Source: Deltaproteobacteria bacterium
Lineage (GTDB): Bacteria > UBA10199 > DSSB01 > JACPFA01
Direction: 5' to 3'
NCBI GenBank assembly: GCA_016183235.1
Contig: JACPFA010000021.1
Location: forward strand, 33,596-97,595
DNA: 64,000 nucleotides
The notes under the pieces: model-generated
Told to the model about the DNA's origin: nothing
Database searches by the model: none
Seen by the model: the letters and a program-made list of their open reading frames with translations, nothing else
Part shown: piece after piece, positions 55,391 to 56,713 of the stretch
Layout: each line of letters opens with the position of its first letter
Position numbering within the stretch: position 1 is the first letter of the stretch
Program-made: the position numbers and the translations under genes

Positions 55391-56713
55391 GTGAATTATT
55401 TATTAAAACAATTGATGGAATACGGAACTACCGAGTACCAACAATACCAGCCGGGGTTGGGGCGGATGCGGGAGATGTTGAAGCGGTTGGGGTATCCGAA
55501 GCGGGGTATCGAATTTATTTTAGTGGGGGGGACCAATGGCAAGGGGTCGGTGGCGCGGATTTTACATGGGTTGTTGTGGGCACAGGGGCTGCAGGTTGGG
55601 CTTTATACTTCGCCGCATTTGGTGCGATTTAATGAACGCATCGTGGTGGGTAATCGGGAAGTCACGAATGCAACACTTGAAAAAGTGCTGAGATATTTTC
55701 AGAAAAAAAAGATTACAGGCAGGCCCACTTTTTTTGAACTTACCACCTTGCTTGCTTTGGAGGTGTTTCGGCGGGCTAGGGTTAAAATTGCTATTTTAGA
55801 AGTGGGGTTGGGGGGGCGGTTTGATGCCACCAATGTTGTGGACCCCGGCTTGTCGGTTTTGGTGAGTGTGGGGCATGATCATCAAGAAATTTTGGGCCGT
55901 GGGTTGGAGAAGATTGCTTTGGAGAAGATTGGGATATTTCGGCCAGGGAAGCTAGCCCTTGTTGGTAAGGTGCCAGGTCATGTTAAGCGGCTCATTCAAG
56001 ATAAAGCTAAGCAGAGTAAATTATGCTTTCTACCTAAAATAGAAAGTAACTTTTTAGAATCGGGCAGAGACTCTCTCAACCCCAGCAAAGGGGTTTCGAG
56101 TAGCCTCTTCCCGCTTCTAAAAAGTTACTTTCCAAATAGTCACATTCAAAGGCATAATTTAGCCTTAGCATTGAGGGCGCTGTGGTTTTGGCAAAGAGGG
56201 AAATATTTTCCTGCGCAGAATATTCTAGAAGAAGCTTTGCGGCGGATTGAATTGCCGGGGCGGATGGAGGTGCGGGGGAATATTGTCTTGGATGGGGCGC
56301 ATAATTTAGAGGCGGCTCAGGCGCTGGTAAAATTTTTAAAAAAGCTGTCATTGCGACCCCGGACTTTGATCCGGGGGAAGCAATCTCAAACGGAGAGATT
56401 GCTTCGTCACAAAGCTCCTCGCAATGACAAGTACATTTTTTTGGTTGGGATGGCGACGAGTAAAGATCGAAAAAAGTTTATCAATGTCATTAGGCCATTG
56501 GCCAAGAAAATTATTTTTACGGAATTTTTGCACCCACGAGCGGTGAAGCTGGAAACATGGCGAAGGGAATTTAAAATTCGTGGAGCTGAATATTTTAGGC
56601 ATCCAAAATCCGCGTATCAGCGCTTATTAAATTGCCGCGGCAAAAATATTGGCGTGGTGACGGGGTCGTTTTATTTGGTGGGGATCTTAAGGAGCCGTAC
56701 CGAAATAAGATGA
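55391..56713 (+). CDS. folC: Dihydrofolate synthase/folylpolyglutamate synthase carrying two in-frame repeat insertions
   Basis: Mur-ligase P-loop GGTNGKGS, LEVGLGGRFDATN, DGAHN and GSFYLVG. Two segments (56042-56132 and 56346-56429) are copies of intergenic hairpin repeats read through in frame. Confidence 0.85.
   Translation: MNYLLKQLMEYGTTEYQQYQPGLGRMREMLKRLGYPKRGIEFILVGGTNGKGSVARILHGLLWAQGLQVGLYTSPHLVRFNERIVVGNREVTNATLEKVLRYFQKKKITGRPTFFELTTLLALEVFRRARVKIAILEVGLGGRFDATNVVDPGLSVLVSVGHDHQEILGRGLEKIALEKIGIFRPGKLALVGKVPGHVKRLIQDKAKQSKLCFLPKIESNFLESGRDSLNPSKGVSSSLFPLLKSYFPNSHIQRHNLALALRALWFWQRGKYFPAQNILEEALRRIELPGRMEVRGNIVLDGAHNLEAAQALVKFLKKLSLRPRTLIRGKQSQTERLLRHKAPRNDKYIFLVGMATSKDRKKFINVIRPLAKKIIFTEFLHPRAVKLETWRREFKIRGAEYFRHPKSAYQRLLNCRGKNIGVVTGSFYLVGILRSRTEIR
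56042..56132. repeat. Family-H-core hairpin inside the folC coding sequence
   Basis: 18-nt arms GAAAGTAACTTTTTAGAA / TTCTAAAAAGTTACTTTC. The centre CGGGCAGAGACTCTCTCAACCCCAGCAAAGGGGTTTCGAGTAGCCTCTTCCCGC is homologous to 41838-41892. Confidence 0.65.
56346..56429. repeat. Family-A hairpin inside the folC coding sequence (84 nt = 28 codons)
   Basis: TGTCATTGCGACCCCGG...GAAGCAATCTC-AAACG-GAGAGATTGCTTC...CTCCTCGCAATGACA is translated as SLRPRTLIRGKQSQTERLLRHKAPRNDK, between DGAHN..LKKL and YIFLVGMATSKD. Confidence 0.8.

Follow-up and report, generated by a model that had tools for sequence, protein, structure and literature searches.

The window analyzed here, a 64,000-nucleotide (nt) stretch of contig JACPFA010000021.1 from a metagenome-assembled genome (MAG) of a Deltaproteobacteria bacterium, carries on its plus strand, at positions 55391 to 56713 of the window, a gene for folylpolyglutamate/dihydrofolate synthase, folC. 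This gene starts with GTG, encodes 440 amino acids in an intact open reading frame (ORF) and contains two palindromic repeats of unrelated families: element H, a long hairpin at 56042 to 56132, and element A, a palindrome resembling a MITE (miniature inverted-repeat transposable element), at 56346 to 56429, both on the plus strand. The frame is open across all 440 codons, including both elements. As an earlier inspection of the DNA without database searches (here called the sequence-only reading) had noted, both families also occur between genes of the same window while being read in frame in an intact folC.

The folC product matches the Pfam domains Mur_ligase_M and Mur_ligase_C, both above their cut-offs, and the NCBIfam model TIGR01499 (“folC”) with 298.4 bits (cut-off, 162.65), the latter match being broken into two stretches at element A; FolC/FPGS chains in the PDB match it with E values from 2e-43 (1o5z) to 1e-38. 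An identical protein is present in NCBI as HYU97_04850, annotated just as “hypothetical protein” in a Deltaproteobacteria bacterium MAG and encoded by a contig of 98.6 kb. The nearest other protein is P0002, with 72% amino acid identity (72 to 78% for P0002/L001), followed by relatives below 41%. P0002 is encoded on two independently assembled contigs of a sister population, L001 (JGI sample 3300025308) and L002 (ENA), and L001 is the ortholog referred to below. All columns that are invariant in an alignment of 54 FolC sequences are retained in the query (G47-S53, S74-H76, E137, D145, N148, H164, E178, K179, Q253, N256, R291, D301, A303-N305, and K358), and the FolC motifs tested, namely, the P-loop GTNGKGS, SPH, the E/D ligands, HQxxN, DGAHN, and KD, are present.

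Compared with L001, the ratio of nonsynonymous to synonymous divergence (dN/dS) is 0.30 overall, 0.20 in the N-terminal half and 0.25 in the C-terminal part, and it is 0.29 even in a hyperdivergent stretch after H; the flanking segments give 0.20 to 0.29. The proportion of synonymous differences (pS) is 0.33 gene-wide and 0.5 to 0.6 in the segments adjoining the H core. With a dN/dS of 0.30 and all family-invariant residues retained, folC is under purifying selection and is not a pseudogene, so that the broken frame and pseudogene that the sequence-only reading had set against its own proposal are not what we found. Some local departures from related sequences were also observed: 33 nt that encode LDRSGYPMELQ in the ortholog are missing from the window gene at 55714/55715, the spacing from R83 to F115 is the shortest among 54 homologs, and DNA identity to the ortholog is 53 to 65% from the right arm of H onward (56112 to 56260), compared with 90 to 98% over most of the gene.

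A model of the product built with AlphaFold2 from the 54-sequence alignment reached a mean predicted local distance difference test (pLDDT) score of 86.4 and a predicted template modeling (TM) score of 0.89, and Foldseek aligned it to the Yersinia and E. coli FolC structures (3nrs, 3pyz, and 1w78) with TM scores of 0.78 to 0.87. The two-domain FolC fold is present in this model. Its low-confidence stretches are only two, at residues ~215 to 250 (H) and ~321 to 345 (A), A falling in a loop that leads from a helix to a strand.

Element A proved to be exactly as first described: ORF and inverted-repeat analyses gave 84 nt, or 28 stop-free codons, covering residues ~319 to 346 and translated in the folC frame as LSLRPRTLIRGKQSQTERLLRHKAPRNDK. 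It begins with the left terminal inverted repeat TGTCATTGCGA (56346 to 56356), an 11-mer that also ends six other copies in the window, followed by a small hairpin, CCCCGGA-CTTTGA-TCCGGGG (56357 to 56376), as seen in the fold and in BLAST cross-hits, and by a perfect central hairpin, GAAGCAATCTC-AAACGGA-GAGATTGCTTC (56377 to 56405), which is conserved in family members from many metagenomes. Thirteen unpaired nucleotides then lead to TCGCAATGACA (56419 to 56429), the perfect 11-nt partner of the left repeat. The fold energy of the element is -47 kcal/mol (z = -8.1). According to BLAST, its small left hairpin is a module similar to another repeat family of the window (55353 to 55367 and the 54350 region).

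In the DNA alignment, element A is absent from the ortholog, which reads TTTTTG-CGCGAAAGTTATCCGGAAAAAAAGTTT-GTTTTTTTGG across the site. The net difference at this site is 69 nt, compared with 84 nt for the element, which implies that the insertion was accompanied by a loss of 15 nt. In the protein, H304 of the AHN motif and K358 of the KD motif are separated by 54 residues, a spacing that none of 53 homologs reaches (28 to 37 residues; median, 31). The earlier claim that removal of A restores the canonical spacing therefore holds only with regard to A being extra: excision leaves 26 residues, and the net gain in the loop between the post-DGAHN helix and the next strand is 23 residues rather than 28.

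In the model, A lies between helix 306-321 and strand 348-352 of the C-terminal domain, with pLDDT values of ~48 to 55, and its 23 net residues are probably disordered. This helix-to-strand loop is situated at the N-terminal end of a strand in the Rossmann-like C-terminal domain, and in the topology customary for that type of fold it would point away from the ligand-binding edge. The flanks of the window A copies share no consistent direct repeat, and no target-site duplication was identified for A. A stop-free run over 28 to 30 codons is not rare in itself, occurring at a frequency of ~0.3 at random window positions, so that it is the family membership of A and the empty site in the ortholog, and not the absence of stop codons, that make this more than a chance event.

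The other six copies or part-copies of A in the window are all intergenic or upstream of a start codon; their positions are given here without strand. Copies with the same terminal repeats lie between genes at 24578 to 24691 (114 nt), 41026 to 41107, and 47386 to 47460, an intergenic partial copy with a degenerate right end was found by similarity and terminal-repeat search at 28531 to 28592, and the terminal-repeat search gave a further partial copy from 52535. The last one, of 84 nt (31440 to 31523), lies a short way upstream of where the gene in ORF 31188 to 33521 probably starts; because it precedes the likely start codon, we rejected it as a second in-frame copy.

Beyond the window, the half-motif GTCATTGCGA-N8-30-GAAGCAATC was found in at least 120 IMG/VR contigs from many samples, with up to six copies per contig, and the full elements in IMG/VR, 71 to 130 nt long, have terminal repeats and central hairpin in common but differ in their two side hairpins. 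Altogether, 66 full copies (71 to 130 nt) were present among the sequences examined. BLAST also retrieved full-length, unannotated copies in plasmids of Aulosira laxa, Halomonas, and Methylosinus trichosporium and half a copy in a Methylocystis rosea plasmid (AP018309.1, NZ_CP040452.1, NZ_CP023738.1, and NZ_CP034088.1), that is, in four genera of three lineages (cyanobacteria and alpha- and gammaproteobacteria). The G+C content of the loci ranges from 45% in the window to 61 to 72% in several viral loci. Judged by its ends, TGTCATTGCGA...TCGCAATGACA, and its central GAAGCAATC hairpin, the A family is conserved across phyla and is carried by viral contigs and plasmids without annotation. Rfam, Pfam, and NCBIfam hold no family that covers element A or its peptides, and a literature search with the terminal-repeat sequences returned only coincidences with primers for the polymerase chain reaction and no named description of the family.

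One of these viral copies could be a second case of read-through. Contig L136 carries a 69-nt A copy in frame (837 to 905; VSLRGAAEAISSEVAASPTPRNDM) between the Phage_portal and Phage_Mu_F domains of a 744-codon open frame, which makes it a candidate. A copies in high-G+C viral contigs are crossed by further long open frames, which were discarded as mostly spurious and arginine rich, L136 being the only one with domains on both sides. In the sister-population loci, no A element with both exact terminal repeats was found; half elements and composite A-H arrays occur there instead. In such arrays (L010, L011, L015, L023, and others, and 52535 to 52640 of the window), an A-type left half, TGTCATTGCGAGCGAGC..GTGGCAATCTTCC, is joined through a conserved linker, ..CATCTGCAAATAGGGTCAC, to an H hairpin, and this modular, BIME-like A-H mosaicism is frequent in the sister population. 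An A-type terminal repeat is also met upstream of the sister folC: at 1576 to 1620 of L001, the preceding GAF/HATPase_c_2 gene is called from an ATG within the repeat gATGTCATTGCGAGG, giving a protein that starts with MSLRGGTTKQS. The equivalent window sequence (54380 to 54420) is degenerate.

Element H, 91 nt long and translated as residues ~218 to 248, consists of a left stem arm, GAAAGTAACTTTTTAGAATCG (56042 to 56062), a right stem arm, CGCTTCTAAAAAGTTACTTTC (56112 to 56132), with which it pairs, and between them an apex, GGCAGAGACTCTCTCAACCCCAGCAAAGGGGTTTCGAGTAGCCTCTTCC (56063 to 56111), whose columns are invariant or near invariant in 33 copies. The hairpin is followed by the motif CAAATAGTCAC (56133 to 56143; CAAATA[G/T]..), which is found after the hairpin in most copies as read from their flanks. 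The position of H, its 18-nt perfect arms, and the homology of its core to a second window locus had all been recognized correctly, the core being 88.7% identical to 41834 to 41895. Beyond the 18 perfect outer pairs, the arms are 90% complementary over 31 nt each, and the fold energy is -51 kcal/mol (z = -10.4). Over H, the pLDDT of the model drops to 47 to 66.

In contrast to A, element H is present at the same position in folC of L001 and L002, two independent assemblies of the sister population. The spacing from K179 to Q253 is 74 residues, compared with a median of 72 (range, 55 to 76) in homologs. Since the ortholog also carries H and the length of the region is that of ordinary FolCs, H is better described as a replacement than as an insertion: it has taken the place of native residues, namely, the small beta-sheet segment located ahead of the HQxxN helix in the T. 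maritima and E. coli enzymes. Of the two indels that had been anticipated in an ortholog alignment, only that of A, with its empty site in P0002/L001, was thus recovered, whereas H occupies the same place in the sister lineage and brings no net gain in length. No target-site duplication was identified for H; AAATAG occurs on both sides, yet CAAATA is a motif of the family rather than a target hit at random.

The second H copy of the window is intergenic, on the plus strand at 41801 to 41928, 23 nt after the stop of ORF 41272 to 41778; it has the same apex as the folC copy on a 39-pair outer stem of unrelated sequence, with a fold energy of -103 kcal/mol. A covariance model of H scored 104.5 bits for this copy and 99.3 bits for the folC copy on the plus strand (~55 bits on the reverse strand), while the rest of the window gave only scores of generic hairpins. 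When 20 nt of the apex were used to scan metagenomes, 44 loci were returned, among them ~38 true copies, all from the sample of the sister population, and five chance matches. The apex pattern was also searched for in a genome-contig collection that does not include this MAG; it gave 3 matches, of which L003 was set aside as a chance match.

Across the family, H is a single hairpin of 77 to 137 nt with a conserved, asymmetric apex, GGCAGAGRCTCYCTCAACCNC(N)AGCAAAGNGGTTTCGRGTAGCCTCTTCC, on a stem of 11 to 44 pairs whose sequence varies between copies while remaining complementary in each. This anatomy is the reverse of that of a MITE, because it is the apex that is conserved and the outer arms that vary. 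Only 1 of ~40 H loci is genic, counting as one the window folC and its ortholog in L009 (the same contig as L001). To assess orientation, we considered 32 nonredundant copies (L006 to L049, JGI Ga0209211 contigs, plus the window) with an ORF of at least 100 amino acids no more than 400 nt upstream: 28 of them are on the strand of that ORF, mostly 0 to 150 nt past its stop (P = 2e-5), and the folC copy is in sense orientation like the family. This bias argues for some strand-specific aspect. An intrinsic terminator was considered and rejected, given the lack of a U tract; the terminator search made no terminator-like call at either window copy, whose flanks read TTCGCACAAATATTT and similar. A scan of the whole window at Rfam gathering thresholds gave only a tRNA and no family for H or A, and a permissive scan of 55950 to 56500 gave only generic microRNA-precursor hairpin models, far below threshold. 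In L049 (~100 to 260), H carries a nested insertion at its apex, where ~90 nt of different sequence interrupt the loop.

The most unusual aspect of H, and the lead most worth following, is the way its stems differ between orthologous loci. When the window hairpin at 56042 to 56132 is compared with L009 3234 to 3324, 7 of the 15 outermost stem pairs differ, and all seven are altered on both arms with pairing kept; no change is one-sided, while a T/C mismatch nearer the apex is preserved in both genes. Similarly, the intergenic orthologs (window 41740 to 41990 and L038 2130 to 2340) are distinguished by two mirror-image 25-nt indels, one per arm, within DNA that is otherwise ~95% identical, and L017 and L022 carry, on the left, a mirrored version of the flank normally found on the right in this family, which gives stems of 42 to 44 pairs. 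Across 33 distinct copies, 93.9% of the alignment cells are paired, compared with 35 to 57% when the partners are slid; 17 of 32 stem pairs show double-sided changes, there are almost no one-sided changes of the G·U type, and none of 500 shuffles attained the covariation score of 0.314 (0.095 in shuffles).

Selection for an RNA helix would not produce this combination of paired substitutions, mirrored indels, and hardly any G·U, and the pattern points to symmetrization of the H stems at the DNA level. The most likely process would be hairpin-templated DNA copying, either by template switching or by quasi-palindrome correction, with replacement by another H copy as an alternative candidate. In quasi-palindrome correction, described in E. 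coli and phage T4, template switching turns one arm of an imperfect palindrome into the exact Watson-Crick complement of the other, which would give paired substitutions, mirrored indels, and no G·T, as observed for H. The conserved mismatches in the H apex, however, escape such a process, and the correction is known from individual sites; it is not known to preserve symmetry throughout a repeat family or over ten codons of an essential gene.

Taking these results together, we consider it quite likely that folC is a working gene that was hit twice by small palindromic repeats of its host, both of which were kept in frame. A would be a recent, lineage-specific insertion from a widespread MITE-like family, whereas H, being common to the sister lineage, would be the older event, in which the hairpin took the place of the peripheral beta-sheet segment before the HQxxN helix; both would have been retained because they preserve the frame, lack stops, and fall in permissive parts of the fold. 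This reading draws on the anatomy and family membership of the two elements, the empty site of A, the shared site of H, the purifying selection on the gene, and the confinement of low model confidence to the two segments. What we infer is the production of an active full-length protein and, for the elements, a passenger rather than an adaptive status.

Several observations fit this picture less well. The H core has 0 changes in 14.3 synonymous sites at a local pS of 0.5 to 0.6, and such synonymous invariance, which would be unexpected for a pure passenger, is suggestive, although not conclusive, of nucleotide-level constraint or homogenization. The co-orientation of H with upstream genes hints at a role at the transcript level that a model restricted to DNA does not explain, and the equal lengths of H and of the native segment that it replaced are not explained by a simple insertion. 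As for A, its excision would leave the loop 5 residues shorter than that of the ortholog, so that the insertion was not clean, no target-site duplication was identified, and the element is known at this site from one assembly only. Finally, expression and activity of the 440-residue product are themselves deduced from the gene.

An alternative that we regard as rather unlikely is that the elements, H above all, act on folC expression as RNA, for instance, by serving as a substrate of RNase III, by pausing ribosomes, or by attenuation, and that H is kept for that reason. Such a role would account for the 61 nt of the H core (56057 to 56117) that are 100% identical to L001 amid neighboring codons with a pS of 0.5 to 0.6, for the strict maintenance of a stem with 18 or more perfect pairs, and for the sense orientation that the folC copy shares with a family found 0 to 150 nt after stops; moreover, transcribed Correia, ERIC, and BIME repeats have been reported as targets of RNase III or RNase E or as attenuators (PMC3049150). 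However, although the 61-nt run is the longest identity run in folC, others of 51 and 43 nt make it no strong outlier, and we therefore gave little weight to the “frozen core” as a sign of function. The near absence of G·U pairs is likewise unusual for a stem selected as RNA, there is no U-tract or terminator signature and no Rfam match, and with a single genic locus among ~40, a dedicated role in folC would be a one-off.

Far less probable still is that folC is a decaying pseudogene or that the insertions are assembly artifacts created by repeats. The MAG does stem from short-read metagenomics, in which repeats can mislead assemblers, and the 33-nt deletion, the hyperdivergent segment at 56112 to 56260, and the bare “hypothetical protein” label could be taken as signs of decay. 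An assembly error is nevertheless unlikely because each element is flanked on either side by unique folC sequence that stays in frame and because H recurs in two independent sister-population assemblies, and decay is difficult to reconcile with 440 open codons, a dN/dS that stays at 0.29 in the divergent stretch, intact catalytic and motif residues, and a TIGR01499 score above the cut-off. It would be more surprising yet if the element sequences never reached the mature protein, being removed from the mRNA in an intron-like manner or skipped by the ribosome. Both elements are very stable hairpins, and in yeast mitochondria translation is known to bypass mobile hairpin inserts; yet excision of the 91-nt H would shift the frame, freedom from stops in the folC frame would be needless if the elements were skipped, and no intron or ribozyme family matched.

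With the working gene carrying two palindromic repeats as the preferred reading, the closest precedent is provided by the Rickettsia palindromic elements (RPEs), small multicopy palindromes of 105 to 146 nt (PMC3184786) that are found in frame and stop-free in housekeeping genes, yield fold-compatible products, and also occur between genes (Ogata et al. 2000, per PMC10969869 and PMC3184786), with nearly half of the RPEs from three families lying within ORFs (PMC10969869). The sequence-only reading had named RPEs as the known precedent, and the parallel of a palindromic repeat in frame within a protein-coding gene is sound; they are not the only one, since reviews list ERIC/RU, Anabaena MITEs, pneumococcal BOX/RUP, and Coxiella QMITE1 as fused in frame with genes, some internally, and call such MITE or repeat fusions “not unusual” (PMC10969869, PMC3184786, and PMC5896051). 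The present case is confirmed as a further instance of this in-frame palindromic or MITE fusion, known from Rickettsia and other bacteria. The folC elements work like an RPE insertion yet are not RPEs: at 84 and 91 nt they are shorter, the host lineage is different, and genic copies are seen only in folC, among seven A and two H copies in the window and ~40 H loci overall. The A and H peptides gave no match to NCBIfam or Pfam at an E value of ≤1, in releases whose inclusion of RPE models is unconfirmed and with RPE DNA not compared.

Element A resembles MITEs in its perfect terminal repeats, small size, many copies, stable fold, and filled and empty sites between close relatives, and its family is conserved across hosts of 45% to 72% G+C; of the other MITE criteria, no target-site duplication was identified, nor a cognate transposase, although no transposase search was made. 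H shares with SPRITE, a pneumococcal element resembling a rho-independent terminator whose placement by the 3' ends of genes hints that it affects transcripts (PMC3049150), its closeness to gene 3' ends, but it has no U-rich tail, and the terminator search did not call it. As with Correia elements, transcription of an H copy would yield a long duplex cleavable by RNase III. REP/REPIN elements are palindromes of 20 to 40 nt with a GTAG tag at the end, arranged as inverted doublets (PMC3733652); by that definition, H does not belong to them, its GTAG lying inside the conserved apex (56100 to 56103) and not at the foot of a short palindrome.

It is tempting to speculate, tentatively and with the odds rather against it, that H represents an undescribed kind of hairpin element, in which an asymmetric apex of ~50 nt is conserved while the stem is continually rewritten mirror-symmetrically, with Watson-Crick pairs only, by hairpin-templated synthesis or repair. 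Such an element would couple two groups of folC codons, and its strong co-orientation with upstream genes would come from transcription-coupled spread or from a strand-specific role of the apex, e.g., as a loop that binds protein or RNA at the 3' ends of mRNAs. If this were true, a change in the codons of one H arm would force a complementary change in those of the other, and protein evolution in an essential gene would be palindrome driven and nonindependent.

Other palindromes of the window deserve mention. At 24892 to 25106 lies a large nested palindrome in which perfect outer arms of 43 nt enclose an imperfect inner pair of 38 nt; the sequence of its outer end, TAAAAAGTTATTTT, is similar to that of the H arm in folC, TAAAAAGTTACTTT. 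One more family of hairpin repeats (ATGGATCC..GGTCTAGCCCGGGATGACG..) is represented at 55310 to 55380, ending 11 nt before the GTG start of folC, with further members at 54301 to 54369, 44891 to 44957, 41220 to 41261, and 3453 to 3568; the ortholog version of the copy next to folC is ~46 nt shorter.

These results show that in-frame palindromic insertions in housekeeping genes, best documented in Rickettsia, also occur in a free-living uncultured lineage. Here, two unrelated element families are combined in one gene, A with a clean pair of filled and empty sites and H with an older copy common to both lineages. This amounts to a small natural experiment on where the FolC fold accepts foreign, probably disordered sequence and in what amount. 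Given that the A family crosses phyla and is present in viral contigs, yet is unannotated, many short “hypothetical proteins” and odd metagenomic inserts may be translations of A. The mirror-symmetric H stems, in turn, provide, through the comparison of orthologous loci, a tractable signature of palindrome maintenance at the DNA level.

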